Shown here: positions 2 through 44,249 of the stretch, in pieces
Layout: each line of letters starts with the position of its first letter
Numbering within the stretch: the stretch's first letter is position 1
Assembly (NCBI GenBank): GCA_013287645.1
Contig: JABDDJ010000003.1
Coordinates: 509 to 64,508 of the forward strand
Direction: 5' to 3'
DNA length: 64,000 nucleotides
Origin: Chlamydiota bacterium
GTDB lineage: Bacteria; Chlamydiota; Chlamydiia; Chlamydiales; JABDDJ01
Position numbers and translations under genes: made by a program
Notes under the pieces: model-generated
Told to the model about the DNA's origin: nothing
The model's input: only the letters and a program-made list of their open reading frames with translations
Database searches by the model: none

Positions 2-499
2 TGGATCTCCGCTGCTATTCGCGGCCTGATGTCTCTTCCGATTAATCTCAAGCGCCGCATTTGGTTTTCCATTGATGAGCTACCTTCACTCCACAAAGTA
101 AAAGATCTTGATACGTTTCTCACGGAAGGGCGCAAATACGGTGGGTGTGGAATCCTCACCCTCCAAAGTCCGGCTCAGCTTGAAAATATCTATGGACGCG
201 ATGTGGCAAAAATCATCATCGGAAATACCGCAACAAAAGTTATTTTTAGAGAGAAGGATCCAGAAACGGCTGAACGGATTTCAAAGGCTTTTGGCGAAAG
301 AGAAGTCATGGAAATTCAAGAGGGGATTACCTATGGTGCTAACGAAGTTCGCGATGGCGTGAGCCTTTCCATGCAAAACAAAATCCGGCCGGTTGTCTCT
401 TCTACCCAAATTCTTGAACTTCCGATCAACACAGCCTACATCAAACTTGCAGAAGAGCCGCACGTATCTAAAATTACGCTCAATCTTTCAAAAAAATAA
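2..499 (+). CDS. C-terminal part of a TraD/VirD4-type type IV secretion (conjugative) coupling protein; the 5' end lies outside the window
   Basis: The reading frame is open from the window edge. Motifs IWFSIDELPSL (Walker-B-like DE), RKYGGCGILTLQSPAQLENIYG and IIGNTATKVIF resemble the conserved C-terminal half of T4CP ATPases. Confidence 0.6.
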   Translation, partial: WISAAIRGLMSLPINLKRRIWFSIDELPSLHKVKDLDTFLTEGRKYGGCGILTLQSPAQLENIYGRDVAKIIIGNTATKVIFREKDPETAERISKAFGEREVMEIQEGITYGANEVRDGVSLSMQNKIRPVVSSTQILELPINTAYIKLAEEPHVSKITLNLSKK

Positions 500-2536: not shown

Positions 2537-3559
2537 ATGAAACAATTTATTTACAGATTGGTAGCTACCGTAATGTTATTTACAGCAGCTGAAACAGTTG
2601 CAACAGAAGGCTCAAAAGCAACATTTTTGATGCTAGTAAGTCCAAAAGCCAAGCGTGGTTGGGAATATATTGGACAAGGAAAAGCCCAACAATGTCGAGA
2701 AGATGATGGAACTTTTAGGTTATCACAACCTAAAATTAATGAAGTTGAATTACGCTATAATCCAAAAAAACAAATGAGTGGGATTTGGTGGGATTTTCGT
2801 TTTAGACAAGAAGCCGGCACACCAGTAACTTCTGGAATTTACACCGCATTGTCGCGTTATCCGTTTGGTCAGGGCGCCTGTGTCGATTTTGGTGGATCTG
2901 GACGCGGTTGCAATAACTTGATAGGCGATCTCAATATTTTGGATATTACGCATGATGAAGAAGGAAACATTCAATCATTTGCTGCAAACTTATTGCAGCA
3001 TTGCGAAACCATAAAACATGCCCCTCTCTTTGTGGGAATTCGGTATAACTCATCGATTCCAGTAATAGTAAAGCCAGAAGAGTTGTACAGTTCTCAACAT
3101 AAACCCGCGTCATTCATTCACTATCTCGAATGCCCAAGAACAGATGCAGAAACTCCTGACAGAAACGAGGTGTTTCATAACATCACAAGTAACCAAACCG
3201 ATTTTACAATCAAATGTAGCCAAATTGAAGATTTGAGTGGCTTCGGAAGAGGAATAGACATCAAAATTGCAAGTGAACCTTCTAACATATGGTTTACTCT
3301 TCCCGTTCCAAAAAAGAAATACCTCAAAGAATGGCGTCATTCAGTGCTTGCCATGTCTGACGATGCTGTGTTTTATACAGATGATTACTATTATCTGAAA
3401 GAATACAGAATAAGGGAATTAAAGCTAAATGACTCAAAGCAAGTCATCAAATTTGCCGTAGATTTTATTGCGGAAACAGAGGACGGCAAGATCATTCAAG
3501 GATCTCTTCGCCATAATTCTGATGTTGCGGTGAATTTGGAAAAACCTTACAACGATTAA
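2537..3559 (+). CDS. Secreted hypothetical protein, tandem paralog B (unknown family)
   Basis: Signal-like N-terminus MKQFIYRLVATVMLFTAAETVA. Conserved blocks LNILDITHDEEGNIQSFAANLL...IRYNSSIPVIV and YYLKEYRIRELKLNDSKQVIKFAVDFIAETEDGKIIQGSLRHNSDVAVNLEKPYND match ORF 1101..2291. Confidence 0.65.
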   Translation: MKQFIYRLVATVMLFTAAETVATEGSKATFLMLVSPKAKRGWEYIGQGKAQQCREDDGTFRLSQPKINEVELRYNPKKQMSGIWWDFRFRQEAGTPVTSGIYTALSRYPFGQGACVDFGGSGRGCNNLIGDLNILDITHDEEGNIQSFAANLLQHCETIKHAPLFVGIRYNSSIPVIVKPEELYSSQHKPASFIHYLECPRTDAETPDRNEVFHNITSNQTDFTIKCSQIEDLSGFGRGIDIKIASEPSNIWFTLPVPKKKYLKEWRHSVLAMSDDAVFYTDDYYYLKEYRIRELKLNDSKQVIKFAVDFIAETEDGKIIQGSLRHNSDVAVNLEKPYND

Positions 3560-3599: not shown

Positions 3600-3795
3600 C
3601 GGGAGTAAGTACTCTATAATGTACTTGTACTTGGAAACGGTCTTATTTGTTAGACTGTTTTCGAATAAAAATCTGTTAGAGCTGCCTGTGTGGTATTGAT
3701 TTTATGGATATGTTGTAAGAACGAAAGTTATGATTTCTATGACTTTGGTGCATAATATTCTTGCACAAAAGTCATAAATATTATAACATTGGTGT

Positions 3796-4374
3796 ATGAG
3801 CAACAAAGATCAACTTTTCGAAATAGCCAACAGGCAACAGGGCTTTTTTATCACGAGGCAGGCAGAGGCCTGTGGTTTTTCGCGCTCAAACTTTCATTTA
3901 AAAATTCAATCGGGCGAATGGATTAAAGAGAGGAGAGGCATTTATCGTCTAGCCCACTATCCCATAACTGAAAGACCTGAGCTTGTTCTTTGGATTCTTT
4001 GGAGTTGTAACCGCAAAGGGGAACCTCAAGGTATTTGGTCACACGACACTGCTCTGGATATTCATGAGCTTAGTGATGTAATGCCTTCTAAAATGCATAT
4101 GTCTGTCCCTTCAAACTTTAGAAGAAGAACAGACATCCCTCGAGTGCTTAACCTACACTATATCGATATCCCCGAATCTGATACTGAAACACGGCAAGGC
4201 TATCGGGTAACAAAAACCCTTAGAACACTTATTGACGTTATTAATGAGGGTAAAATAGCCCCGAATCAAATTGCCCAAGCTCTTAAAGAAGCTCTTCAAC
4301 GAGGTCTTATTTCGAGAAGAGAAGTGGATTCAGAACCGAAACTGACAAAAATAAAGGAATCGAATGAAATTTAA
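3796..4374 (+). CDS. abiEi: AbiEi-family antitoxin / transcriptional regulator (type IV TA system)
   Basis: The N-terminus FEIANRQQGFFITRQAEACGFSRSNFHLKIQSGEWIKERRGIYRL matches the AbiEi winged-helix pattern (..G.vt...a...g.s...l..l...G.l.r..rGiY). Its stop overlaps the start of the downstream AbiEii-like ORF by 11 nt. Confidence 0.7.
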   Translation: MSNKDQLFEIANRQQGFFITRQAEACGFSRSNFHLKIQSGEWIKERRGIYRLAHYPITERPELVLWILWSCNRKGEPQGIWSHDTALDIHELSDVMPSKMHMSVPSNFRRRTDIPRVLNLHYIDIPESDTETRQGYRVTKTLRTLIDVINEGKIAPNQIAQALKEALQRGLISRREVDSEPKLTKIKESNEI

Positions 4375-5987
4375 GACAGCTACAGATTTTCGTAAGAGCT
4401 TGGAAACGAGAATTCAGGGTATTGCGGCCAAAACAGGTCAAGATTTGCAAAGCCTTAGAAGAAAAGTTGCTTTTGATCGATTGTTAGCAAGGATTTTTTC
4501 AGATAACAAGTCTAGCTTCTATTTAAAAGGCGGTTATGCAATGGAGTTGAGGGTGGCTGAAGCTCGTGCTACGAAAGACATTGATCTTACATGTATTCAA
4601 AGAGCGACTAATGAAAGTGAGCTTTGGAATGAAATCATTTTGGATGAGCTTCAGGAATTAGCAAGCCGCAATTTGAATGATTGGTAAAGCTCAATTAGAT
4701 TTAGATAATGCTCCTTATGGAGGAAGCCGATATCCAGTTTCCGCACTGATTGACGGTAAGCTCTTTGTTCGTTTTCAATTAGATGTAGGTGCCGATGTTG
4801 TCGTGGATGAAATAGAGCAAATTAAGGGCATTGATTGGTTAGAATTTTGTGGAGTAAAAGCCCCCATAATTCCGGCAATATCGATAGAACAACAACTATC
4901 AGAAAAGCTTCATGCTTACTCTATGCCTCGTGGCGATAGAATAAATTCTAGGGCAAAAGATCTTGTTGATATGGTGTTGTTGCTTAATATGAGAAAAATA
5001 GAAAAAGAGGAGTTTCAGAAAGTACTGGAGAAGGTATTCAAAGCTCGAAATACTCATCCACTTCCTAAATTTTTAGATCCACCTCCTTCGGAGTGGGAGA
5101 ATCAATTTAAAAAGATGGCCGCAGAATGTGGTATTACCCAAGACATGAGATTGAGTTTTGAAAAAATGTCCTTTTTTTACAGTCCAATTACACAGGAAGA
5201 ATGGCAAAACGCGAAACTAATTCTTGATGAATATGGCAGTCTAATTGCTCCCCATACGGTCATTCTAGCCTTCGATGAAAACGAATCTTATGGCACTGCA
5301 GTTCTTATCAACTACAAGAACAAAAAAGTTTTATTAACCGCTACCCATGTCGCTCGACAATTGAAAAAGGCTAAAAGAATTCGTCTTATTTCTCATTTTG
5401 ATGATAGACGCAGAGAATATCCTACCCGTGATCCGCGAGATTTTGAAGTTAAAGAATGGGATTTAAGCTTTGCTGATGAAATGCTTCAAGATGTATTGGA
5501 TTCAGTCCCCAAGGACTTAGCCGTTATTGAACCTTCTCCTCAAATTATTAATATGTTAGAAAATTATAAACAATTTTTTCTATTTACTGAACCTTTAAGT
5601 ATAACATCGAAAGATGCATTAGTTTTATTTGGAGGAATAGGGTCTGAGAAAACAGGTAATACATTTAATGGTAGGGTTTATTCGCTTGCTGTAGTTATGT
5701 CAAATTATGAAAATAAAATTGACAGTGATTACATTGTTTGTAATGTGAGCACTGAAACATTCGGAATAAAAAATCTTGGAGAAAAAATCATCCCAAATTT
5801 CCAAGGCTCAAGTGGTGGTGGCGTTTGGAAGATAGTCAATCAGAAACCTCAGTTGGTTGGTATAGCGATAGCCCAGGATTTGACAGACTATAAAACTGTC
5901 AACAAAGAAGGTCTGTTGTATTTTCATGGATCACAATCTATTTCAATGATGTTGAAATCTTTGGATGATGAATCAGAAAACATATAA
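4364..5987 (+). pseudogene. abiEii: AbiEii/AbiGii-family nucleotidyltransferase toxin, split by a frameshift at about 4677-4687 and fused to a C-terminal trypsin-like serine protease domain
   Basis: ORF 4364..4687 carries the family N-terminus (RKVAFDRLLARIF...FYLKGGYAMELRV..ARATKDIDL). ORF 4677..5987, in another frame, continues the family (GGSRYPVSALIDGKLFVRFQLDVGADV...SEKLHAY). It then adds about 260 aa with H-D-S order: LLTATHV (His codon 5346-5348), KDLAVIE (Asp 5514-5516), QGSSGGGVW (Ser 5811-5813). Confidence 0.6.
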
Positions 5988-6294
5988 AATCACTCCATGA
6001 TTAATAAATAATACAATTTATTCATGAAATAGTATGTGCATGTACTAATTATCTATAATAGAAAATAAAGTAAAAGTTATTACTTCAACAATTTTTTATA
6101 TATAAAAGCTATTTTTAAACTAGAAAACAAATTTATTTTGTTGATTTCTATCCATATATATTTGTATATTAACTACATGAACAAATTCTTGATGCAAAAC
6201 TAGTATATATTTTCGTTTCCTTCGCGGCCTTTCCGCGTATAATAGCGGCCGCTAATCTAGGGGGTGCAAGAAGACAACAGAAGTATTTTGTGTA

Positions 6295-6650
6295 TTGCAC
6301 ACTGCTGACTGGCATCTTGGCAAAATCCTTCACGATCAAGCCCGCGACGAGGAACACAACCACTTTCTGAATTTTCTACTACAAACAGTCAAGGACAAGA
6401 AGATAGATACTATCATCATCGTCGGGGATATCTTCGACTCGCCGCATCCCACTCACATAGCCCAACGACTCTACTATGACTTCCTCGCAGAGGTCAATCG
6501 CTCCACAAACTGTTCGGTCGTCATTACCTTGGGCAACCACGATTCACCGGTCAACCTGGAAGCTCCTAAAGACGTTTAAAAGAGATCAATACCCACGTCG
6601 TTGGCGATGTTCCGGAAAACCTTGACGAGGCATGAGGCTCAAAAACATCA
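6295..6650 (+). pseudogene. sbcD: Truncated and frameshifted sbcD (Mre11-type nuclease) N-terminal remnant
   Basis: TTG start, then HTADWHLGK, IIIVGDIFDS and LGNHDSP, which are calcineurin-like phosphoesterase motifs I-III of SbcD. A stop at 6579 is followed in another frame by EINTHVVGDVPENLDEA. No further homolog-like sequence follows; a full-length SbcD would be about 400 aa. Confidence 0.65.
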
Positions 6651-7483: not shown

Positions 7484-8130
7484 TTATTCACCCACCGTTT
7501 TAATTTCAATAATTTTATATTTGCCCTCATGATACACCTCAGGTGGTGTCTTGTACCCAATAGACTGATGTGGACGCTCTTTATTATAGAATCTTATGTA
7601 TCTTGAAATGCCCTCAAATGTCTCTTGAACGCTCTCATAACTTTTTGGATACACTTCTTCATATTTTAAAGATCGCCATAATCTTTCAATAAACACATTG
7701 TCTAATGCTCTTCCTTTTCCATCCCAGCTTATGCTTGTTCCAGAGCCCATCAAAGCGCTTGTAAACCTGTCTACAGTAAACTGTGATCCTTGATCTGAGT
7801 TAAAGATTTCTGGTCTACCCGCTACTAATGCCCTCTCCAATACTTGTAGGCAAAATATTTCATCAAGTGTCGTTGAAAGCTCCCAGGCCAGTACACAGCG
7901 ACTGTACCAGTCCATTATCCCAACGAGATACACAAACCCCCTTTTCATTGGTATATAAGTGATATCTGTACTCCACACATGGTTGCAATGATCTATCGTC
8001 ATACCTCGGAGAAGGAGGGGTATTTAACTCCTCTTTCCTTTATCTTGCTGAGGTTTGGTTTTGGATAGATTGCCGATATCCCCATAATCTGCATTAGTCT
8101 CCTGGCGCGTTTTTCATTAATAACCCATCC
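7484..8130 (-). mobile_element. IS3-family transposase OrfB (rve integrase core) remnant, N-terminally degraded
   Basis: VWSTDITYIPMKRGFVYLVGIMDWYSRCVLAWELS, FNSDQGSQFT and FYNKERPHQSIGYKTPPEVY are DDE/rve motifs. Upstream minus-strand sequence reads RRLMQIMGISAIYPKPNLSK but is interrupted by stops. No orfA is present. Confidence 0.75.
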
Positions 8131-8150: not shown

Positions 8151-8762
8151 CAATCTCATGGCGAGATTGAAACAGAGCACCCTGGATACCTTTTATCCCA
8201 AGATACGTACTATGTAGGAACGATTAAAGGCGTGGGGAGGATTTATCAACAAACGGTCATCGACACATATACCAAGGTGGCATTCACTAAACTGTATGGC
8301 AGAAAGAATGTGCTCATAGCAGCGGACATTCTTAATGATCAAGTCATACCCTGGTTTGAAAACCAAGATATCCGAGTTCTTAGAGTACTCACAGACAGAG
8401 GGACAGAATACTGTGGAGCTAGAGAAGATCATGCTTATCAACTCTACCTAGCGCTCGAAGATATCGATCACAGCAAAACAAAAGCAAAGCATCCGCAAAC
8501 TAACGAAATATGCGAGCGATTTCATCTAACGGTGAAGACTGAGTTTTATCAAGTGGCGTTTAGGAAGAAAGTGTATAAAGGCCTTGACGAATTACAGGAG
8601 GATTTGAATAGTTGGATTCGTGAGTATAATGAGTCTAGGACGCATTCAGGAAAGTACTGTTTTGGCAGAACGCGTTTACAAACGTTCTTGGAGGCAAAAC
8701 ATCTAGCACAGGAAAAAGTGCTAGATAAACAGTATCTGACAGGTTCTAACGTTGTCGGGTAG
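8151..8762 (+). mobile_element. IS481-like transposase C-terminal fragment abutting the IS3 remnant
   Basis: The in-frame stretch ETEHPGYLLSQDTYYVGTIKGVGRIYQQTVIDTYTKV, LTDRGTEYCG, HPQTNEICERFH and YNESRTHSG matches the IS481-type rve core. The N-terminal HTH portion is missing. Confidence 0.7.
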
Positions 8763-10469: not shown

Positions 10470-11939
10470 TTAATAAAACACAAACAGTATTAATTTAATT
10501 GCGAATTTGTCATGAATAATGTTCGGGTCTACATTTTCAATGTCTTTTCTACCGTCTCTATAAATAATTTCTTCAACAGGTGTAATAGACAAATCCTTTA
10601 GTTTATCGCCCGTAAGTGTCACGGCCATGTTCAAAGGAAATGGATAAAGTTGAATCCATGGTAGTCCTTGTTTAGTGAAGTCTTCTGCAATTGGAAAATG
10701 GCAATAGTCTGGCGGGATTTTAGATCTATTTACGATGACAACAGTTGCATCTGCCGGAATATTGAGCGATTCTTCATTGCATAGAAAATTGCTAAATCCG
10801 CCGTCTTTTTTGGTAAGTTCCAATATTCTTACGGCTCCTGGCTGATAGTCTAGACTGAATGTGTCTTTTAATGATTTGATTAACTCAACTGAATTTTGAG
10901 ATAGTCTTTCGTAAACTTCCACATTTTGCATATCTGGCAATCGACGGACAACACTAAGTTGTGAATCAGGTTGAAGATTTATCTCCTTAAATAAAAGACC
11001 GTTTGGATAAGTTCGAGTTTGCTGGTTTTCAGCATTGAACGTAATTTGTGGGTAGTTGACATCAAGATGTTGACATTTGTTTGCAAACTCATCCATTTCC
11101 TGTTTTGTAACTAATCCTCTTATCGAAATACTTACGCGTTTTCCTTTCGCAGATCCCGGTGTTAAATCGCCTAATCTATCTATAGGTGCTATCGGACAAT
11201 GCGGGGGTAATGTATTTGCTCCTGGGTATTCAGGTGCTATATTTGGTCCAAGATAGATTGCAGGCTCGGTATATACAGTACATGCTATTTGGGTATCAAA
11301 TATTGGGAAAATAAAGCGATCTCCTGTCTCTTCATCTTGAAGTATTGTTCCTGTAAATGTTCCTTTTGCCATTTCCCAATCAACCAATGTTAAATCTTGG
11401 ACAAGAATATACTCTGGAATAGGAAGTGTATGTTCTTTTAAAAATTTGTATTGAGTGACAAATTGATCTTGATGAAACCTATTAGCATCAAAATTTATTA
11501 TCAAGCTGAGGTCTTTGGATAGTCCGTAAAAGTGGACTTTCCAATGGTTTTCTATCATGCGTTTCACATGTTGAGCATGATTTTCAAATACTGCCATCCC
11601 CTTCGTATCTGCATAGATTGGTTGATTATTTTCATCATAACCGATTGGATCTGTCATTATTGTGCATATCGGTGTTACTTCGTTAATAGGGAAATCAAGC
11701 TCAGCTGTTACAATGCCATGCTGCATATTTTCTTGAATGTCTATCATGAAATTTTTTGCCATTTCATGTTTTTCGGGAGTCATGTAAAAAAACAAACGGT
11801 TTTTTCCAAACTGGGCGGTTGCTATCTCAGAACTCCCTAATCGTCCAGGTACGGGCAAAGTTTCGGCGGAAGATAAAGCATAATTAAATATAAACAGAAA
11901 TAACACAAATGTTGTTATGTTTTTCATTTTAATCACCAT
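10470..11939 (-). CDS. Secreted protein of unknown family, paralog 1 of 3
   Basis: Signal-like N-terminus. Blocks shared with ORFs 11949..13418 and 35849..37261: LPVPGRLG, FFYMTPEK, QDLTLVDWEMAKGTFTGT..QD..GDRF, GSAKGKRVSISIRGLV, KKDGGFSNF, QGLPWIQLY, ITPVEE. Confidence 0.7.
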   Translation of the reverse strand: MVIKMKNITTFVLFLFIFNYALSSAETLPVPGRLGSSEIATAQFGKNRLFFYMTPEKHEMAKNFMIDIQENMQHGIVTAELDFPINEVTPICTIMTDPIGYDENNQPIYADTKGMAVFENHAQHVKRMIENHWKVHFYGLSKDLSLIINFDANRFHQDQFVTQYKFLKEHTLPIPEYILVQDLTLVDWEMAKGTFTGTILQDEETGDRFIFPIFDTQIACTVYTEPAIYLGPNIAPEYPGANTLPPHCPIAPIDRLGDLTPGSAKGKRVSISIRGLVTKQEMDEFANKCQHLDVNYPQITFNAENQQTRTYPNGLLFKEINLQPDSQLSVVRRLPDMQNVEVYERLSQNSVELIKSLKDTFSLDYQPGAVRILELTKKDGGFSNFLCNEESLNIPADATVVIVNRSKIPPDYCHFPIAEDFTKQGLPWIQLYPFPLNMAVTLTGDKLKDLSITPVEEIIYRDGRKDIENVDPNIIHDKFAIKLILFVFY

Positions 11940-11948
11940 AAAAAATAG

Positions 11949-13418
11949 TTAATTTATAACAAATAAAATCAATTCGCAAACTAATTTCTCTGTAAGAACG
12001 GAATCGTATGCATTTTCTTCATCGATTTGCGCATTTCTGAAGAATAACTCTTCTAGTGGTGTCATTGAAAGTTGTCTGAAAACTCTTCCAGATACGATCA
12101 TTGCTTGATGAGGGGAGAAATTAAAAAGTTGTATCCACGGTAACCCTTGATCGGTCCATATTTTCGAAATCGTATAGTATTTATAATTTTCTGGAAGCTT
12201 AGATTTATTCAATATGACGACTGTTGAATTTTCCGGAATCTCTAAATCTAACTTAGAAAATCGACTGAAGCCTCCGTCTCTTTTAATTAGATGGAATATT
12301 TTGACGTTAGACCCTCGCACACCTAAATTTTTTTTTAGATAGGAAATTGTGGTTGAAAAATCTTGAGGAGACGACTCTAAAATTGTTAGATTTTCTTGAT
12401 CAGGCAATTTGTGTTGAAGGGAATTATTCTCGTTGGCTAATTTTTGGGAGATATCTTGTATTTTAATTGTGTCAGGATATTCAAAAAGTCTTAAATTATC
12501 CTTCTCAATTGTTATTGTGGGGCGGTTGATTGGAAGAAAGGTCGCATTCTTCGCTGCTAAAATGATCTCTTCTTCTTGTACAACTCCTCGAGTGCTAGTG
12601 CTGATTCTTTTGCCTTTCCAAGATCCCACTGTTGTACTTCCATCAAAGTCTGTAGGAGCCACGGAACTATGGTATGGAAAACTAATGCGTCCTGGATATA
12701 CGATTACAGAGTTTTTGTCTTTAGAAACGCAAGGTTCTGTGTAAACTGTGCCAACGATTTCTCCAGGAAAAACAGCCATTATGAAACGGTCGCCATCAGA
12801 ACCATCTTGAACCAATGTCCCTGCAAAAGTTCCTTTTGCCATTTGCCAATCCATAAGAGTTAAATCTTGAAATAAATAATACGTCTTAACTGGCGGAGGA
12901 AGCGAGCTTAGGTATTGATATTGGTCGGAGAACGAATCACGATGAATTTTTAGCGCATCGTAGTTAGGATTAAAGTTAAGATGACCTGATAATCCCTCCA
13001 TTTTTGTACCTAATACGCTATACACAATTTCAGCAACTTTACTTCTATATGTTGAGAACAAGTTGTGACCTTCAGAATCAGGATAGATGTTGTTACCATC
13101 CTTATCTTCTCCAATAGGGTCGGGATATTTTTCATTCCAAGCAAGAATTTCGATAACAGGACAGGGTGCTGAAGCATTTCCAAATGAAAGGATAGTTTTT
13201 TCATTGATGTCCCGGATTAGTTGTCGAGCTAACATGTCTTTCTCAGGTGTCATGTAAAAAAAAATGTAAGTTTTTCCAAAACGGGTGAAATAGACACTAT
13301 TGTTGCCAATACGCCCAGGGAGAGGTGTGTGTTGTTCCAAGATGGAGTAGGATTGTAATTTGTGGGGGGCACTTACAATCAACAATAAGAAAATCGTGGT
13401 AAAGATACGTGATATCAA
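11949..13418 (-). CDS. Secreted protein of unknown family, paralog 2 of 3
   Basis: Same block order: PLPGRIG, FFYMTPEK, QDLTLMDWQMAKGTFAGT, GSWKGKRISTSTRGVV, KRDGGFSRF, QGLPWIQLF, MTPLEE. It lies 9 nt upstream of paralog 1 on the same strand. Confidence 0.7.
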   Translation of the reverse strand: MISRIFTTIFLLLIVSAPHKLQSYSILEQHTPLPGRIGNNSVYFTRFGKTYIFFYMTPEKDMLARQLIRDINEKTILSFGNASAPCPVIEILAWNEKYPDPIGEDKDGNNIYPDSEGHNLFSTYRSKVAEIVYSVLGTKMEGLSGHLNFNPNYDALKIHRDSFSDQYQYLSSLPPPVKTYYLFQDLTLMDWQMAKGTFAGTLVQDGSDGDRFIMAVFPGEIVGTVYTEPCVSKDKNSVIVYPGRISFPYHSSVAPTDFDGSTTVGSWKGKRISTSTRGVVQEEEIILAAKNATFLPINRPTITIEKDNLRLFEYPDTIKIQDISQKLANENNSLQHKLPDQENLTILESSPQDFSTTISYLKKNLGVRGSNVKIFHLIKRDGGFSRFSKLDLEIPENSTVVILNKSKLPENYKYYTISKIWTDQGLPWIQLFNFSPHQAMIVSGRVFRQLSMTPLEELFFRNAQIDEENAYDSVLTEKLVCELILFVIN

Positions 13419-13741: not shown

Positions 13742-15817
13742 ATGGAAGCAGTAGCAGTGATTGGGCTTGCTGGTTCATTTCCAGCTTCTTCGTCGATTGA
13801 AGAGTTTTGGGCCAATTTATGTAAAGGAAAGGAGCTTATTTCTTTTTTAGACGTTCAAGAATTGTTACAGGAGGGGTTGGACCCGAAAATTCTAAACAAT
13901 CCTCAATATGTTAGAGCTAAAGCTATTTTGCCAGAAGCAGATTGTTTTGATGCTTCATTTTTTGGATACAGTGCCCGTGAAGCTGCATACATCGATCCGC
14001 AGCAAAGAGTCCTTCTTGAGTGTGCTTGGAGTGCTTTGGAACATTCTGGTTATGATCCTGAGCAGTACAAGGGCTTGATAGGAGTGTTTGCTGGGTGCAG
14101 TTTTAGCAGCTATTTCTGCTACAATTTGTTGCCACATTTGAATGGTGCTGAGAATTTGATGCAAGACGAAATGTTAATGGTTATGGGGACTGAAAAGGAT
14201 TTTCTAGCGACGCGCATTTCTTATAAACTCAATCTGACAGGACCGAGTAAGTGCATTCAGACTGCTTGTTCGTCTTCTTTGGTTGCAGTACACGATGCTT
14301 GTCAAAGTCTGCTCAATTATGAGTGTGATATAGCCTTAGCAGGCGGGGTCTCGATTACTTCCCCCCTCCGACATGGATATCTATACACAAAAGAAGGTAT
14401 TAATTCACCGGATGGACATTGTCGAGCTTTCGACCATCGTGCGGCAGGTACTGTCATGGGTAATGGTACAGGGATTGTGGTTTTAAAGAGATTAAATGAA
14501 GCTTTGGCTGATCGGGACACAATTCATGCTTTAATTCGCGGGTCTGCCATAAATAACGATGGGGCAAGGAAAGTTGGATATACTGCACCTAGTATTGAAG
14601 GACAAGCACAAGTTATTATTGCTGCTCAAGCAGCCGCAGAGGCGACTCCTGAAGACATTACTTATATAGAAGCTCATGGGACAGGAACAATTCTTGGGGA
14701 TCCAGTTGAAATCAATGCGCTGACTCGTGCGTTTCGAGAAAAAACGAATGCAAAACAGTTTTGTAAAATCGGTTCTGTGAAAACGAACATTGGTCATTTG
14801 GATGCTGCAGCCGGGATTGCAGGCTTGATTAAAACCATTCTTACTGTACAGCATCGCGTTGTTCCACCCTCGTTGCACTTTGAAAAACCTAATGAGTCCA
14901 TCGCATTTTCTGAATCTCCATTTATCGTAAATGATAAATTAACATCCATGGATAGCAAGAATGGAGTAAATTTGGCCGGTGTAAGCTCGTTTGGTATCGG
15001 AGGTACTAATGCTCATGTCATTGTTGAGAATGCTCCTCAACATAAGGTACACCCTTCAAAACGGCATTTTCATCTTTTTCCATTTTCTGGAACAAATGTT
15101 TTTTCGCTTAGAAAGGTTCTCCAGCGGTTTCTCGAGCATTTTGCTTTGCAGAATTTTTCATTAGCTGACGTTGCTTACACCTTGCAAGTAGGTAGAAAAA
15201 GATTAGAATACCGCGTCTGTTTTATCAGTGATAATAAGGAAACACTGATAAATCAAATCAATCAATACCTTACCCATGGTCTTACGAATTTAGAACTCAT
15301 AGACGTTTCTGTTCAAGGTGACGAGCTCGACAAACTCAGAAAAATGGGAAGAGATTGGTTGAGCGGCTTGGATTGTTTGTGGAAGTCTTATTATTCTGAT
15401 GAGAGCAGAAGCCGTATACCACTCCCCACCTATCCATTTGAAAGGGTACGCCATTGGATACTTCCAAAATCATGTGCTTCAGTAGACAGTAAAGAAGCTC
15501 AGGAATCAAAAAGTGATTTATTAATTAATTTAGGCTCTGCCTCAAAATCAATACAATCCGAGGTCGTTGATATTTGGAAAAAAAGTTTGAATGTTGCACA
15601 TATCGATATTCAGGATGATTTTTTTGCTTTAGGTGGTGACTCTCTTTTAGCATTGGAAATTCTGGATGAGCTGAGAAAAAGGTTTGCGGTGGATTTAACA
15701 CTAAGTCAAATACTAGAAAAAAGAACTGTAGAACAATTAGCAAATGTCGTTGAAGAAATTATAATAAAAAATATTTCTTCATTGTCAGAAGAAGAAGCTA
15801 CTTCACTCATAAATTAA
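13742..15817 (+). CDS. Stand-alone PKS module: ketosynthase, short linker, carrier protein (no AT)
   Basis: KS Cys-His-His: IQTACSSSLV (Cys codon 14267-14269), EAHGTGT, NIGHLDAAAG. The post-linker motif PLPTYPFERVRHW (~15417-15455) comes only about 130 aa after the KS, too short for an AT domain. Carrier motif FFALGGDSLLALE (Ser codon 15641-15643). Confidence 0.85.
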   Translation: MEAVAVIGLAGSFPASSSIEEFWANLCKGKELISFLDVQELLQEGLDPKILNNPQYVRAKAILPEADCFDASFFGYSAREAAYIDPQQRVLLECAWSALEHSGYDPEQYKGLIGVFAGCSFSSYFCYNLLPHLNGAENLMQDEMLMVMGTEKDFLATRISYKLNLTGPSKCIQTACSSSLVAVHDACQSLLNYECDIALAGGVSITSPLRHGYLYTKEGINSPDGHCRAFDHRAAGTVMGNGTGIVVLKRLNEALADRDTIHALIRGSAINNDGARKVGYTAPSIEGQAQVIIAAQAAAEATPEDITYIEAHGTGTILGDPVEINALTRAFREKTNAKQFCKIGSVKTNIGHLDAAAGIAGLIKTILTVQHRVVPPSLHFEKPNESIAFSESPFIVNDKLTSMDSKNGVNLAGVSSFGIGGTNAHVIVENAPQHKVHPSKRHFHLFPFSGTNVFSLRKVLQRFLEHFALQNFSLADVAYTLQVGRKRLEYRVCFISDNKETLINQINQYLTHGLTNLELIDVSVQGDELDKLRKMGRDWLSGLDCLWKSYYSDESRSRIPLPTYPFERVRHWILPKSCASVDSKEAQESKSDLLINLGSASKSIQSEVVDIWKKSLNVAHIDIQDDFFALGGDSLLALEILDELRKRFAVDLTLSQILEKRTVEQLANVVEEIIIKNISSLSEEEATSLIN

Positions 15818-15834
15818 ACATTTTTAGGTAATGT

Positions 15835-18800
15835 ATGTCACAATTAGACAATTTGACCGAATCCCATAAAAAATTATTCGAACAGATGCTTTCTAGGAAG
15901 ATAGAACAAAAAAATAGAATGTTCCAACAGGATGTTCCATTTGTCACTGTCTTACCTAAGCAAAAATATTATGCAGCATCTACTATTCAAAAGCGAATGT
16001 TTTACTTACAAGAATTGGACAAGCATTCAACGGCATACAATTTACCCGTTGCATTTTCCATAGGTGGTGATCTTTGTGTCCAAAGCCTGAGAAATGCATT
16101 TCATAACCTTTTAAAAAGGCATGAAAGTTTAAGAACAGGGATCTATTTTCACGAAGGCGAAGTTGTCCAGGCTGTTTACGATGATGTCAATTTCGAGATA
16201 GAATTTGTTCAAGATTCTAACGTAGATATCAAAAATACATTTGAGAGTTTTATCAGGCCATTCGATTTGGATAAACCTCCATTAATCAGAGTAAAATTAA
16301 TCAAAATAAGTGATCAAAACCATTTATTGTTTTTAGACATGCATCATGCAATTTCTGATGGGAAGTCAATGAGTCTTTTACTAAAAGAACTTGCAAGTCT
16401 TTACGAAGGTCACACTTTGAACGTTTTACCTATTCAGTATAAAGAGTATGCTGACTGGAATGCTCGTTTTCTAAATACACCTATATCTCGCATAAATTAC
16501 GAATATTGGAAGTCGCAGTTTTCAGAGGAAATTCCTCAAATTGCTTTTCCGAGTGATATTATGAGCCAAAATGCTCTCGCATATCAGGGATCTCAACATT
16601 ATTTTTCTATGGATGTGTCCTTGTCAGAACAAATAAAGGCTGCCGCAGTTAAGGAAGGGGTTACTTTACATACCTTTTTGTTGGGAATCTATTATGTGTT
16701 GCTGGGAAAATATACTCAGCAGGAAGATATTATAGTGGGTTCCTCGGGTGAAGGGAGACCTTTTCCCGAGTTTCAACAAGTCATTGGTGCGTTTGTTACG
16801 GCTTTACCACTAAGATGTAAACCTAATGGAATAAAATCATTTAAGAACTTTTTGGAAGAAGTTCAGTCATGCATTGTAAGGGCTTCTGACCATCAATATT
16901 TTTCGTTAGAGGAATTAGTCCAATTTCTTAAAAAAGAACAGTATATTCAAGACAATAATCTTTATGATGTATGGTTTGAATTGCACTATGATCGATCGAT
17001 TCTCAAGAAATTTTCAAATTTAACTATAGAACCTTTACAAGTCACTCATCACGCTTCAAAATTTAAGCTATCGTTAGAAATCGTTGACCGAGAACAATCG
17101 CTAAATTGTCATTTTGAATATAGTTCTGCGATCTTCCAAGAAAGGACAATCGTTCGTATGGCAAAACAATTCGAACGAATAGCAGCACAAGTTGTAGGTA
17201 CTCCTAACATATTGATTGGAGATCTTGATTTTATTCCAGATGAAGAGAAGGATTATCTTGTTAGGGAATTGAATATTCCGGCCGTTCCTTTTGCAGCGCC
17301 AACACTGTCATTTTGTGAAATTTTCAATCAGCAAGTTAGTTTGCGCGTTGATGCAGTTGCTGCCACATGTAATGGTGTACATTTAACATATAAAGAACTA
17401 GACAACGCCAGTACGCATTTAGCTAATCACTTTGCTGCCCTTCGTCGGCCAGAAGAACAGTATATTACCTTCCTTATGGAAAGAGGGTTACCATTATTGA
17501 TCGGACTAATAGCGACCTTGAAAGCACAAATGATTTATACCCCAATAGATCCGGGAGCACCGGTCGATCGGATTTTGAATCTTATTGATGATGCTGCTCC
17601 TGTTTTAGTAATCACTGACAATAGTGCTGAGTGGATCGAAAAATTTTTGCCGGGAAAAAATAATGTTCGAAATTTTTACGAGATATTTGGATCTCCTGCT
17701 TCATCTGCCCCCCAAGAACCGCTATTTTCTTCTGATCATCTTGCATATATGATCTTCACTTCGGGTTCCACAGGGAAACCAAAAGGAGCAATGGTAGAAC
17801 ATAAAGGCATGATGAACCATCTTTTTTGTAAGATCCATGAGCTGGAATTGAACGAAAATGATGTTGTTGCTCAAACGTCTTCACAAACGTTTGACGTGTC
17901 TGTTTTTCAATTGCTGATTGCCTTGTTAGTAGGAGCTAAGGTTACAATTTTTTCTCATGAAAAGGCTTGGGATCCAGAACTTCTTTTGAACGCATTGGAA
18001 GACGAAAAAGTGACGGTTTTCGAAACTGTACCATCTCACATGTACCTGATCATGGAGGAACTTGAACATAGCCTTGTTTTAAACAGTCTTAAAGAGGGTG
18101 AAGCTGATCCATATGATAAATTTTTCAAAGGAAAACCCCTTGCCTTCTGTCATTTTCGTTGGCTGATCCTGAATGGTGAGCCTCTACTTGGACCACTATG
18201 TGAGAGATGGCAACGCATTTACCCTCACGTTCCTATTATTAACGCCTATGGTCCTACAGAATGTTCAGATGATGTCATTCACTATCATGTGCCATTGGCA
18301 TTATCACCACTTCCTCCTCGTATTCCAATCGGGACTGTCATATCGAATATGAAGATTTATTTTCTCGACAATTACATGTCTTTGGTGACTTTAGGTGGTT
18401 ATGGAGAAGTTTATATTGAAGGAATTGGTGTCGGGCGTGGGTATATCAATGATCCAGAAAAAACAGCAAATGCATTTCGTCCTTCTCCGTTTTCTTCTAA
18501 AAATGAACCTGGCAAGCGAGCTTATTATACTGGAGATCTTGCTCGTTATCTGCCAAGTGGGGACATCGATTTTCTGGGAAGAAGGGACAGTCAGGTTAAA
18601 ATTAGAGGGCAACGCATTGAGTTAGGAGAGATAGAAGTAACTCTAAATCGATCCGATATGGTTTTACAAGGGGTGGTTGAAGTTAAAAAAGATAATCAGA
18701 ATGAGCTTCAGCTGGTTGCTTATATTGTTAAAAAAGATATAAATATTCCTGACAATGAATGTATCGAACGGCTCAATCAGTATTTAATCCAGTATTTATC

Positions 18801-21800
18801 AAGGCATATGGTTCCTAACCTCTTTGTAGTACTTCCTGAAATGCCTCTTCTGTCAAATGGGAAGGTAAATAGGAAAGCGCTGCCTCCGCCGAATTTTGTT
18901 GTATCTGAAAATGAATATCTTCCGCCCCGAACTGCTACAGAGATTGAATTGGCAACGATTTGGTGTGATCTTTTAAAACTTTCAAAAATTAGCCGTTCTG
19001 ATCATTTTTTTCGTTTGGGGGGGCATTCTTTGCTTGCAACACAACTGAGTGCGCGGGTTTCGAGGACTTTTGACATCAAATTCCCGCTTAAAAACCTGTT
19101 TTCTTATCCGACTCTTGAATCTCTAGCGAATGAAATAGATAAATTAAAGCAAAAAAAACAAGCAGTGGTTTCAAAAGAACAATTACCCTCGATCGTATCG
19201 GATATTGAAAGCCGTTATGAAGAGTTTCCTCTCACGGATATTCAACAAGCTTATTGGTTAGGAAGAAAAGGGTTGTTTGCTTTAGGCAATGTCAGTGTTC
19301 ACATGTATTGCGAATATGAATGCGACAATCTGGATATCAATCGCTTAGAACAATCATGGAACCAAATGATTCAACGCCATGAAGCGTTGAGACTAGTTTT
19401 TACTCCGGGTGGAAATCAAAGGATTTTAAAAGAGGTTCCTTATTATTCAATCCATGTTGAAGATTTTTCAAATCGAACCGAAAAAGAGTGTGAAACTGAG
19501 TTCAATAGATTACGACAACTGCACTCTCATGAAGTGTTTTCATCCGAAACATGGCCGCTTTTTTTGATCAAAGCCGTCAAGCTTAAAGACAACAAAACTC
19601 GATTATATTTAAGTTTTGATGCGTTGCTTCTAGACGGGTGGAGTGTAGATATTATCTTCGGCGAGTGGGTACAGCTATATAAAAATGAACAAACAAAATT
19701 CGAGCTTCTTGAGCTTTCGTTTAGGGATTATATTCTTTCTTTGAATAAATGCCGCATGCACCCTTTATTTGTAGAACATCGGGACTATTGGTTAAGCAGA
19801 TTAGAAAATTTCCCGAATAAACCAGAATTACCTCTATTGAAATCTTCACAAGAGATTAAAAATCAAAAATTTGATCGAGTTAGCAGCATTTTGTCCAAAC
19901 AACAATGGCAGTTGATTCAAGATCAGCTATTAGCTAAACATTTTTCTCCGACAGGTTTTCTTGCGGCTATTTTTGCTGAAGTGCTTAGTCGATATGCTAA
20001 TAGCAGCCATTTTGCAATCAATTTGACTTTGTTCGATAGAATTCCTTTGCATTCTCAGATCAATCAAATTGCTGGGGATTTCACTTCTTTAAATTTACTA
20101 GAAATTGATTATAGAAAAAAGGGGTCAACGTTTGCAGATCGAGCTAAAAGAGTGCAAGAACAGCTATGGCAAGATTTAGATCATCATTTCTTTAGTGGCG
20201 TAGAATTTTCTCGAGAACTTGCAAAAAAACGATCCAAGCAAGGGGATGAGCCATTATTTCCAGTCGTATTTACATCGGTTTTAGGACTAGATAACAAATT
20301 CAATGATGATGTTCTAGAGATGTTGGGTAAAGAGGTTTTTAGCATTACTCAAACCCCTCAAGTTTGGTTAGACTATAAGGCGTATGAGGTAGATGGTAAT
20401 TTGATTTTGGAGTGGGATTATGTTGAGGAATTGTTTGCTCCTGGCTTTATTCAAGAGATGCATGAAGCCTATGTTGCTATTCTTAAAAAACTGGTGAATC
20501 AACCATCCGCATGGAACGTGCAAGAATTTCAAGATTTGATTTCTTCAAAACAAGAAGAGCGATTTTCAAACTACAACAATACCCATGATATAGCTCCTCC
20601 GGCTTTGCTACACGGGTTATTTTACGATCAAGTTAAACTCAATCCAAAACAGTTAGCAATCATTGGACCTACGGATTCTTATACCTATGAAGAACTATAC
20701 AGATCTTCAAATCAGTTAGGACATTTTCTTAGATTCAAGGGTGCAAAGCCAAATCAGTTGATTGCTGTAATTATGGAAAAGGGGAGTAGGCAGGTTGTAG
20801 GTTGCTTGGGGATTCTAAATTCAGGTGCCGCATATCTTCCTATAGACCTGTCTCTCCCAACTAAGCGGATTGAACAGATTTTGTCTATAGGTGACGTTTC
20901 TTTAATTGTGACAGAACAAAATGCGGTCGATAAGTTGAAATCAATTGGATACGTTAATCAACTACCAGCCGATCGTATTATCTCTTTAGATGATCAAAAC
21001 GCTCAATATAGGCACTATTCAGATCAGAAGCTCGATAACATTCAAAAAACTGACGACTTGGCTTACGTCATTTTTACTTCGGGTTCCACAGGAATTCCGA
21101 AAGGGGTCATGATAGAGCATGGTGCGGTATCTAATACTATTTTAGATTTAAATAAACGATATCAAATTCGATCATCAGATCGGGTATTAGCTTTATCAAG
21201 TCTGACGTTTGATTTGTCAGTTTACGATATTTTTGGAATGTTAGCTGCAGGAGGTTCGATTGTTTTTCCTGAGTCTTCTTTAATAAAGGACCCGAATCAT
21301 TGGTTAGAACTTCTCACTACTCATGAGGTTACTGTTTGGAATACTGTTCCTATGTTTATGCAGATGTTAACGACTGTGCAACAAAAAACGACAGAACGGG
21401 ATATTAATATAAGGCTTCGCTTGATATTACTTAGCGGAGACTGGATTCCAATTGACCTCCCTAACCAAATTATTCAATTTTTTGGAAAAAAGGATTGTCA
21501 AATCGTTTCTCTAGGCGGTGCAACAGAAGCTTCAATTTGGTCAATTTATTATGACATCAAGCGCGACGAATACTTTAAAAAAAGCATTCCATATGGACGA
21601 CCTTTGACGAATCAACAGTTTTATGTTCTTGGTGAAGGTCTTGAACATTGTCCAGAATGGGTTGTTGGAGATTTATATATCGGAGGTATTGGCCTTGCAA
21701 GAGGGTATTGGTCGGATCCAGAAAAAACCGCTACCAGTTTTACTATTCATCCAAGATTTGGTCGCATATATAAAACAGGAGATTTAGGGAGGCTATTACC

Positions 21801-42731: not shown

Positions 42732-44249
42732 ATGACAGCATCTATAAGGCCGAAAGTTCAGATCTATATTAACCCTCACGAGCCCATTTGCTCTGATCAG
42801 CAGTGTGCAACGTCTTCTGACGTTGTTGCTAAAAGATTCGCAGAAACAGTTAAAGAAGTCTATGAATTCTTCTTTAAACACTTTGGTATTAACGGTATCG
42901 ATGGTCAAGGCAAATACCCTCTTTTTCGTACTGAATGGGATCAACAGAATGCGACTTGGACCTGTACATCTATACATAAGCCGAGCTGTTCTTTAAGATT
43001 TCATGATTGTTATGCTTTCCAAAAAGAGGTTGTGGCTCATGAATACACACACGCCATCTTGGATCATTTTACACGTCTTAAAAATACGGGAGAGGCAGGA
43101 GCCCTACACGAATCTATAGCGGATGTTATGGCGATCGTTTTTAAGCACACTATTCTGAGAAAAAAAGATTGGAAAATTGGAAATCTACGTGACTTGGGTG
43201 AACGCGTGACAATGCAGAATTTACTAAGGACCGATCCTCACGAGCCCGACAATGGTCATGTCCACGATAACAGTCGCATCCCTAGCCATGCTTTTTATAT
43301 AACTATTGATAGTCTGTCTGCGTGGGAAGACCGGGAGCGTATCATACATATATGGCTGGCTGTTGCTCTGCGTTTGCCTGCGGATGCAACGTTTCAGGGC
43401 TTTGCGTGTGGAATCCTTACAAATGCACGGGGCAGAAACGAACCAAAGCATGTCCTGAATATGCTACGTTACTCCTGGACACAAGTAGGCATTCCTTATT
43501 TCTTACAAGATCAAATGACTCAAGAATGCGTCCCTCGATCAATGAACAGGGGAATATTGTCCAATGAAAAAGATAAATTGGGCGATTTAAAAACAATAGC
43601 CGTTTCTGTATCTTTTGATCGAACAAGCCATTTATCCACAAATTCTAGAGTCGAAGATGCAAGTCAGGCATTAACCCTTTCACAAGCGAATGTAGGGATT
43701 GCGCAAAGCGAGATTGATGCACAGATAGACACGGTCTCACATCAACAACCTATTTCCTTACAAAATCAAATGACCCAAGAGGATAACCATCGATTAACGA
43801 GTTTGACAACACTGCCCAAACATCCTATCTATAAAACTGAGAATGGAAGGGAATTTTATAATCCTAACGTTACGATCTCTCAATTATATAACCACTTTTC
43901 CCCTTATCTTGAGGAATTGGGCTTTAGTAGTGGTATTTATATAGCTGAAAGAATGGATAAGTTTTATTCTATGCCGGTCGACGGACACTTATTTACGGCG
44001 TTATTTTTCAAAAAAAACCATACACACAAAGGGTTTCAACTCCTAGAAAGAGCTTTGAAAACTTTGAGTTATTTTGCTAATGGTCATGTAGATGGAGATG
44101 TTAAAGACTGCCTTCGAAAGCTAATATCACCTACACTTCATAAATGGGGTTTTGAACTCGAGCATATAGGAAATGTCAAAGAATATGACCCTAATTCTGA
44201 ATATGAAATTTTTATATTATTATTTTACAAAGAAAAACAAATGAGGTAA
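42732..44249 (+). CDS. Thermolysin-like (M4-type) zinc metalloprotease domain protein with an uncharacterised C-terminal half
   Basis: VVAHEYTHAILDH (HExxH, 43038-43052) is followed 19 residues later by GALHESIADVMA, resembling the M4 third-ligand motif (ExxxD). No signal peptide is evident. Confidence 0.5.
   Translation: MTASIRPKVQIYINPHEPICSDQQCATSSDVVAKRFAETVKEVYEFFFKHFGINGIDGQGKYPLFRTEWDQQNATWTCTSIHKPSCSLRFHDCYAFQKEVVAHEYTHAILDHFTRLKNTGEAGALHESIADVMAIVFKHTILRKKDWKIGNLRDLGERVTMQNLLRTDPHEPDNGHVHDNSRIPSHAFYITIDSLSAWEDRERIIHIWLAVALRLPADATFQGFACGILTNARGRNEPKHVLNMLRYSWTQVGIPYFLQDQMTQECVPRSMNRGILSNEKDKLGDLKTIAVSVSFDRTSHLSTNSRVEDASQALTLSQANVGIAQSEIDAQIDTVSHQQPISLQNQMTQEDNHRLTSLTTLPKHPIYKTENGREFYNPNVTISQLYNHFSPYLEELGFSSGIYIAERMDKFYSMPVDGHLFTALFFKKNHTHKGFQLLERALKTLSYFANGHVDGDVKDCLRKLISPTLHKWGFELEHIGNVKEYDPNSEYEIFILLFYKEKQMR

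Follow-up and report, generated by a model that had tools for sequence, protein, structure and literature searches.

An AbiE toxin–antitoxin variant with a fused, predicted serine protease module in Chlamydiota, seen in a copy broken by a 17-nucleotide deletion

We have analysed a stretch of 64,000 nucleotides (nt) from a Chlamydiota bacterium (GenBank assembly GCA_013287645.1, contig JABDDJ010000003.1, positions 509 to 64,508 of the forward strand), referred to here as the window and numbered from its first letter. An AbiE-type toxin–antitoxin (TA) locus lies near one end of it, at 3796–5987. It consists of a gene for the antitoxin AbiEi followed by a gene for an AbiEii-like nucleotidyltransferase (NTase) toxin, which is divided between two reading frames and whose second part runs on into a protease-like domain (Table 1). 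The succession of AbiEi and an AbiEii-like NTase had been proposed from the letters of the sequence alone (the original prediction) and is borne out by both Pfam and PADLOC. AbiEi matches PF13338 (AbiEi_4) at 1.5e-9, above the cut-off for that family, and the PADLOC AbiEi model at 7.7e-64, the match covering residues 3–188 and thus nearly the full length of the protein. Its sequence is 83% identical to that of AbiEi in the related locus L005, and 52–58% identical to the AbiEi part of the type B fusions described below. The antitoxin gene comes first in a bicistronic arrangement in which the two genes overlap by 11 nt (4364–4374).

The profile for the toxin family, PF08843 (AbiEii/DUF1814), is divided in the same way as the gene. 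Its positions 1–61 are found in the N-terminal fragment of 107 amino acids (aa), and its positions 82–224 correspond to residues 13–152 of the 436-aa open reading frame (ORF) that follows (1.4e-14). The PADLOC AbiEii model recognises both parts, at 1.5e-32 and 3.7e-42, respectively. The four AbiEii motifs, as defined by Dy et al. (PMC3985639), can all be located. Motif I (GG, 4526–4531) and motif II (R68, T70, D72 and D74, 4565–4585) lie in the 107-aa fragment, and motif III (K77 of the 436-aa ORF, 4905–4907) and motif IV (KDLVD, 4956–4970) lie in the 436-aa ORF. The R-x-T-x-D spacing of the NTase equals that of R63/T65/D67 in the AbiEii of Streptococcus agalactiae. None of the three ORFs has a match in NCBIfam, and no second copy of any of the modules was found elsewhere in the window. 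The guanine-plus-cytosine content of the locus, 0.37–0.38, is like that of its surroundings, with no compositional anomaly.

Table 1. Features of the AbiE locus and its upstream region (positions in the window)
Feature	Position	Strand	Remarks
Distal imperfect palindrome, candidate AbiEi operator	3721..3752	+	more degenerate copy
Proximal operator palindrome CACAAAAGTCATAA-ata-TTATAACATTGGTG	3764..3794	+	ends 1 nt before abiEi ATG
abiEi antitoxin/repressor gene	3796-4374	+	intact, 192 aa; Pfam AbiEi_4, PADLOC AbiEi
abiEii N-terminal fragment	4364-4687	+	107 aa; motifs I and II
436-aa ORF, abiEii C-terminal part and protease	4677-5987	+	
abiEii NTase C-terminal part, shifted frame	4677-5171	+	motifs III and IV
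17-nt deletion junction	4679..4680	+	frame shift +1
Protease module: N-terminal helix and predicted chymotrypsin-fold domain, then stop codon	5187-5987	+	

The original prediction had put a break of frame in the toxin gene within 4677–4687, and this is where it lies. Frame 0 is closed by the TGA at 4674–4676 and frame 2 by the TAA at 4685–4687, and the shift must therefore fall within 4677–4687. The DNA was aligned with that of L001 and L004, the two closest loci then available as DNA, and both have 17 additional nucleotides between window positions 4679 and 4680 (ACTTTTTTTTCTATCAA in L001, ACTTCTTTTCTTATCAA in L004), with no other length difference nearby. The window has thus lost six codons, D-F-F-S-Y-Q, together with the frame. 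The intact protein P0025 (546 aa) reads ...DLSDFFSYQIGKAQLDLD... at this point, where the window reads ...NLND(W-stop)/(M)IGKAQLDLD.... P0025 is 88–91% identical to the window in the NTase (91% between its residues 112–275 and the C-terminal part of the window NTase) and 80% identical in the protease; its match to PF08843 spans positions 1–226 (4.4e-29), and its 90% cluster has four further members of 546–548 aa. In L005 (JBDHQC010000116, 3214–5431), a contig from a Parachlamydiales metagenome-assembled genome (MAG), the fusion is likewise in a single frame, of 549 aa. The NTase is therefore an intact single polypeptide in P0025 and L005, and in the window copy it is not: the lesion separates motifs I and II, in the 107-aa fragment, from motifs III and IV and the protease, in the 436-aa ORF.

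Inactivation, a sequencing error and recoding had all been put forward as causes of this break, and of the three inactivation is upheld. A programmed +1 recoding site giving the full-length fusion might have been suspected only from the 11-nt overlap of the two frames (4677–4687). It is ruled out, and as an explanation effectively refuted, because the relatives carry 17 extra nucleotides at the exact spot and are read in a single frame; a read-through product would, moreover, still be without six core residues, and no slippery motif is conserved. It is also very improbable that the break is an artefact of sequencing or assembly and that the gene is intact in the organism. The related long-read contigs L001 and L004 do have single-base frameshifts that are possibly errors, but the gap in the window is a clean one of 17 nt in non-repetitive sequence, not a homopolymer slip, and it is reproduced by a second assembler: in contig L030, from a Logan assembly made independently from SRR8433209, the sequence over 3601–6100 does not differ from that of the window, and the gene calls are again of 107 and 436 aa. 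There are, in addition, other decayed genes nearby, namely an SbcD-like fragment and two integrase-core transposase fragments. From these comparisons it is very probable that the toxin gene in the window is a pseudogene that arose through a genuine deletion, and we judge it to be a recent one because the remaining 1.6 kb has no other lesion. The abiEi gene and its candidate operator are still intact in the window, and abiEi is probably now an orphan repressor. Expression of the 436-aa ORF may have ceased or may continue. Translation of this ORF from the ATG at 4677, with the function of the protease kept after loss of the toxin, would accord with the lack of further lesions over 1.3 kb, the intact triad, the ATG at the frame junction and the existence elsewhere of protease-only and AbiEi–protease forms. 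We think this quite unlikely, since there is no obvious ribosome-binding site before 4677 and a single lesion fits a recent pseudogene equally well.

Beyond the NTase-like region the 436-aa ORF continues without a stop into what had been proposed to be a trypsin-like protease domain, and structure prediction agrees with that proposal. The domain takes up residues ~170–436 (~265 aa). An AlphaFold2 model computed from a 23-sequence alignment has a mean predicted local distance difference test score of 82 and a predicted template modelling (TM) score of 0.86, and shows an N-terminal helix, two β-barrels and a C-terminal helix. A Foldseek search of the model against the PDB gave 454 matches at E ≤ 1e-3. 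The best 50 of the 454 are all chymotrypsin-fold or viral 3C-type proteases, and the leading matches (DegQ, DegP, FAM111A, elastase and chymotrypsin) have a probability of 1.00 with TM scores of 0.5–0.66. A peptidase fold beyond residue ~180, with residues that align to catalytic positions, was looked for and is thus present in the model, in the Foldseek matches and in the family profile described next.

The His, Asp and Ser motifs noticed in that order in the sequence correspond to His224 (5346–5348), Asp280 (5514–5516) and Ser379 (5811–5813) of the 436-aa ORF, and their positions relative to the strands of the model are canonical. The triad is conserved in the close relatives and is invariant both in alignment A2 and in an alignment of 22 sequences from the wider family (A4), in which identity falls to 18%. 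Searched against the PDB, the profile made from A4 finds chymotrypsin-fold proteases only, although weakly (E 0.011). At this weak score the catalytic His, Asp and Ser of exfoliative toxin B fall opposite LTAaHV, gkDlAli and GvSGGG, respectively, and the His and Asp of proteinase 3 opposite LTAaHV and gkDlAli. The narrower profile A2 returned nothing relevant from a sequence search of the PDB, and in an hhalign comparison of A2 with bovine trypsin only the His region aligned, with a probability of 0.2. Of the Pfam profiles, those for the antitoxin and, in two parts, the toxin were matched as described above, and Trypsin scored 0.005–0.009, below its cut-off. The closest profile is the PADLOC LmuA model PDLC03855, which matches at ~1e-11 and was hit by all 12 of the 12 family members tested, over profile positions 7–171 of 425. 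This model comes without a description; from the matched positions and the published accounts of LmuA, the matched region is probably the LmuA protease module. By its fold and triad, we regard the C-terminal domain as a predicted peptidase, a chymotrypsin-fold (PA-clan) serine protease. It resembles HtrA, DegP, DegQ and other PA-clan proteases in the double β-barrel, the order and spacing of His, Asp and Ser, and the C-terminal helix. It differs in having neither a PDZ domain nor a signal peptide, and its sequence similarity is marginal.

The protease family is rare. A word-indexed search with the protease domain found only 23 proteins, and an exhaustive search of 1.84 billion representative proteins with a profile gave 100 matches at E ≤ 1e-3, of which 16 reach E ≤ 1e-30. 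A scan of one genome per species yielded 25 loci, all of them in MAGs and almost all labelled Chlamydiota, the labels including Parachlamydiales, Rhabdochlamydiaceae and Waddliaceae; two are labelled Verrucomicrobiae and three only 'uncultured bacterium'. Copies linked to AbiE occur only in MAGs labelled as, or resembling, Chlamydiota. In a plasmid collection we found only a match of 205 nt, with 71% identity, to the AbiEi gene of a Simkania negevensis plasmid, and no fusion.

Mapping of the three modules by tblastn shows two architectures, in both of which the protease module is C-terminal. In type A, [AbiEi][AbiEii-protease], it follows the toxin; this form occurs in the window, L001, L004, L005 and the P0025 cluster, so that the survey of genomes suggested by the original prediction shows the AbiEii–protease fusion to be rare. 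In type B, [AbiEi-protease][AbiEii], it follows the antitoxin. This is the commoner form, with ~22 loci, in which the fusion has ~470 aa and the separate AbiEii ~270–340 aa; an example with overlapping genes, the L002/L008 locus, is found in OY970065, a chromosome of 2.13 Mb. The AbiEii of the type B locus L002 (7410–8429), of 339 aa, is ~55 residues longer in the tblastn alignment than the ~272-aa NTases elsewhere. Besides the window copy, two other type A copies are broken, L001 through one inserted nucleotide in its protease part and L004 through several frameshifts, with AbiEi also fragmented; the 'contig_N' names of these two suggest long-read assemblies. In one family member, P0003, the N terminus is short and the catalytic His is replaced by Asp. 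Homologues of the module also stand alone, as at L032 (4001–4792), L034 (4001–4807) and L031 (4001–4792), with 263–268 aa. The neighbourhoods of such homologues contain DNA methylase, Vsr and RNase_H_2 genes; a 1440-aa Mrr_cat_2–helicase gene and prophage-like genes; or a PT-HINT protein.

The source annotation of the fusion genes is 'hypothetical protein' or 'AbiEi family antitoxin domain-containing protein'. The original prediction knew of no described effector with the NTase–protease fusion, and this has held up: the fusion is neither common nor annotated, and in the literature searched we found no paper that pairs DUF1814 with a trypsin-like domain, no description of an AbiEi–protease fusion and none of AbiE in chlamydiae with such a fusion. 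This variant of AbiE with a fused serine protease is thus apparently undescribed as well as rare.

Several lines of evidence tie the protease to the other two modules. In the 17 loci that have all three, the identity of two loci in one module correlates with their identity in the others (AbiEi, NTase and protease; r = 0.92–0.94). Type A is monophyletic in all three module trees, and L006, a Rhabdochlamydia locus of type B, is the sister of type A in the AbiEi and NTase trees but falls with type B in that of the protease; both results are consistent with one move of the module in the lineage that gave rise to type A. The ratio of nonsynonymous to synonymous substitution rates (dN/dS), calculated only from pairs with dS below ~1.4 because distant pairs are saturated and their dS undefined, is 0.16–0.23 for the protease, 0.10–0.13 for AbiEi and 0.11–0.21 for the NTase. 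These values indicate that the protease is under purifying selection. No further component could be added to the set. When the flanking ORFs of 28 loci were clustered, no gene beyond the three modules recurred, and there was neither a nuclease of the metallo-β-lactamase (MBL) fold nor any other fourth component; the neighbour tables of three related loci have no MBL-fold gene, and the ORFs immediately upstream in the window have no Pfam match. The protease belongs to the system and not to the toxin alone, since the commoner arrangement places it on the antitoxin. In our view it is very probably an integral functional module of this clade of AbiE systems.

The two types also share their upstream sequences. 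A half-site consensus CACAAATGTTATAA/TTATAACATTTGTG is present upstream of abiEi in nearly all of the 25 loci examined, at a density of 22.7 per kb compared with 0.16 per kb elsewhere, an enrichment of ~140-fold in both types. The palindrome that it forms, CACAAATGTTATAA-N3-TTATAACATTTGTG, is common to types A and B, abuts the start of abiEi and is often doubled. In the window the more distal copy makes up one arm of a 32-nt inverted repeat that is 81% complementary, and the layout of two palindromes is also seen upstream of abiEi in L005, L010, L011, L013 and L019. Comparable inverted repeats are bound by AbiEi of S. agalactiae (PMC3985639). From its conservation and position the double palindrome is a candidate operator for AbiEi. 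A promoter scan of this region gave no more than a weak site at 3705–3734, with 9 of 12 matches, and fewer sites than shuffled sequence, and we do not use it as evidence.

The AbiE systems of Lactococcus lactis and S. agalactiae and the mycobacterial MenA/MenT systems were classed as type IV TA systems, and a placement in type VII is now proposed. The loci described here are like them in having a COG5340/AbiEi antitoxin with an N-terminal winged helix, NTase motifs I–IV of DUF1814, the R-x-T-x-D context of the phospho-acceptor, overlapping bicistronic genes and inverted repeats at the promoter. The toxins and antitoxins of AbiE and MenAT stand alone, whereas here a module of ~265 aa, the predicted serine protease, is fused to one of the two, and in the window the NTase is also disrupted. 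Trypsin-like proteases joined to a protein of a conflict system are known from HamA (Hachiman), Avs1a (AVAST), LmuA (Lamassu) and DRT, in all of which they are N-terminal and always occur with an upstream MBL nuclease gene (Science 2025, PMC12799240). By contrast, the module here is C-terminal and is joined to one member of a TA pair, and neither a nuclease nor any other fourth gene is conserved with it. For Hachiman and AVAST it has been demonstrated experimentally that the fused protease activates the co-encoded pro-nuclease by cleavage, and the same activation has been proposed for Lamassu (PMC12799240); LmuA has N-terminal effector domains, among them a protease with an accompanying hydrolase (papers on Lamassu and on nuclease–protease systems). 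SanaTA and other DUF1814 TA systems offer a parallel of another kind, the toxin SanaT being activated once Lon removes the antitoxin. Release of the toxin by proteolysis of its antitoxin is the same logic as that proposed below, with the difference that Lon is a housekeeping protease of the cell, whereas here a dedicated protease would be encoded inside the operon.

Taking the locus as a whole, we consider it reasonably probable that it represents a three-module AbiE TA system of environmental chlamydiae, in a copy that was inactivated recently. How such a system might work can be sketched from what is known of its relatives. AbiEii-type NTases block translation, and MenT toxins modify tRNA acceptor stems (PMC7450476). 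The AbiEi of S. agalactiae binds AbiEii, and in the resulting heterodimer it induces the toxin to autophosphorylate at T65, which silences it (bioRxiv 10.64898/2026.01.19.700257). The same study found AbiEi to be stable and judged it an unlikely substrate of housekeeping proteases; it left the activation step of AbiE unsettled, invoking a phosphatase or DNA sequestration (bioRxiv 10.64898/2026.01.19.700257). In the intact relatives of the window locus, AbiEi would be a winged-helix repressor as well as an antitoxin, binding the double palindrome at its own promoter, and it would make AbiEii, as the DUF1814 NTase toxin, phosphorylate and silence itself. Since the two proteins pair in this way, a protease fused to one or the other would be held in the same complex. 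On a trigger, it would cleave AbiEi or an inhibitory part of AbiEii, and unphosphorylated NTase would then accumulate and arrest translation. An interchangeable position of the protease is to be expected of a module that has the heterodimer as its target or its regulator. The activity, the substrate and the trigger of the protease are all points that we infer. By analogy with the fused proteases of Hachiman and AVAST, our preferred reading, put forward tentatively, is that its role is possibly that of a built-in switch or activator rather than some other. A fuller version, which we regard as doubtful, is that the intact members of the clade would be self-contained type VII TA systems with protease switches, that the tethered protease would supply the missing activation step of AbiE by cleaving AbiEi or the phospho-silenced toxin, and that the move of the module from antitoxin to toxin would be a Rosetta-stone record of a three-way interaction.

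A number of observations weigh against such a switch. Cleavage of AbiEi or AbiEii by the protease is a proposal by analogy, and no cleavage site was identified; moreover, the known fused defence proteases are N-terminal and act on a separate MBL nuclease, whereas here the protease is C-terminal and the nuclease absent. Five of the 25 genome loci (L010, L016, L019, L026 and L029) keep an intact AbiEi–protease gene (463–477 aa, at about 4380–5810 in each locus) with AbiEii absent or reduced to a remnant; in L010 the gene that follows is on the opposite strand. For three of these five orphans the nearest relative is a complete locus, so that the toxin appears to have been lost at least three times independently with the fusion kept open, and a pure activator of the toxin should be useless without it. 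Stand-alone homologues of 260–290 aa, consisting of the helix and the protease, occur without AbiE neighbours, so that the module is able to function elsewhere too. Nearly all of the relatives, finally, come from MAGs or metagenome contigs, and the single-base frameshifts of L001 and L004 may be long-read errors. The main rival to a switch is that the protease is a second, independent toxic effector, restrained by AbiEi and AbiEii together or by AbiEi alone, which on release degrades proteins of the cell or of a phage, a mode of action that is assumed for other effector domains in defence systems. It is favoured by the orphan genes, which remain intact without the NTase, and by the stand-alone homologues, which adjoin genes of defence or of mobile elements (methylase/Vsr, Mrr–helicase, prophage), and reviews count the protease domains of LmuA among effectors. 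We nevertheless think it unlikely, because the best-studied fused trypsin-like proteases activate a nuclease and are not killers themselves, there is no sign here of broad-specificity proteolysis, and a toxin is already supplied by the NTase. The protease could instead be regulatory, the AbiEi–protease being a repressor that cleaves itself or is cleaved on a signal, like LexA, and so derepresses the operon, or it could have a role peculiar to chlamydiae and outside conflict with phages and plasmids. Points in favour of this reading are the DNA-binding domain of the AbiEi part, the conserved operator-like sequence abutting the start codon, the persistence of the orphan AbiEi–protease genes and the finding of the AbiE-linked clade only in MAGs labelled as or resembling Chlamydiota, which are obligate intracellular bacteria. 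Set against it are the type A loci, where the protease is on the toxin and not on the repressor, and the nearest profile, which is a model of a defence system; we hold it to be improbable.

At 29–499 (+) the window contains a partial gene for a coupling protein of type IV secretion (TrwB/TraD/TraG; PF10412, 1e-48), of which the C-terminal part is present, the gene running off the start of the window; the AbiE locus is thus ~3 kb from conjugative-transfer genes, which suggests a genomic island or integrated element. Between the two are paralogous ORFs of 396 and 340 aa (1101–2291 and 2537–3559, +) with N termini like signal peptides, no Pfam match and near-identical C-terminal ends, ...YFLKEYRIRELxxxxSxxVxKxAxDFIxExEDGKIIxGSLRHxxDxxVNLExPYN. 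On the other side, the decayed genes that adjoin the broken toxin gene are a 94-aa N-terminal fragment of an SbcD/Mre11-like metallophosphoesterase (6295–6579, +) and the transposase fragments with an integrase core (rve) at 7484–8002 (−) and 8232–8762 (+). They are followed by tandem paralogues of 489 aa each (10470–11939 and 11949–13418, −), with signal-like N termini and no Pfam match. Hybrid genes for polyketide synthases and non-ribosomal peptide synthetases (NRPS) occupy 13742–25774 (+) and 58647–63965 (−). They include two ketosynthase–acyl carrier protein (KS-ACP) proteins of 691 and 703 aa flanking a two-module NRPS of 2611 aa, and a further NRPS of 1772 aa, and amount to a sizeable secondary-metabolite machinery for a chlamydia-like genome. 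Other genes encode a 1061-aa STAND/AAA NTPase with a eukaryote-type UCH deubiquitinase domain (45422–48607, +; PF00443, 1e-25), an architecture typical of effectors of amoeba-associated bacteria; a 912-aa fusion of an ATP-grasp domain (L-amino-acid-ligase-like) with Lyase_1 (30050–32788, −); a protein of the beta-lactamase family (27845–29305, +); and a thermolysin-like M4 peptidase (42732–44249, +).

Being a pseudogene, the copy in the window has itself only limited biological interest, and the significance of the finding lies in the clade. Its genes are annotated at present as 'hypothetical protein' or plain 'AbiEi domain-containing protein'. The clade extends the theme of trypsin-like proteases recruited by unrelated conflict systems, to which it adds a TA pair as the carrier, a C-terminal orientation and the lack of the usual nuclease partner. 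Its hosts are obligate intracellular bacteria, in which such systems have been little studied. For the proteolytic control of a type VII TA system, these loci may provide a natural and genetically compact model.

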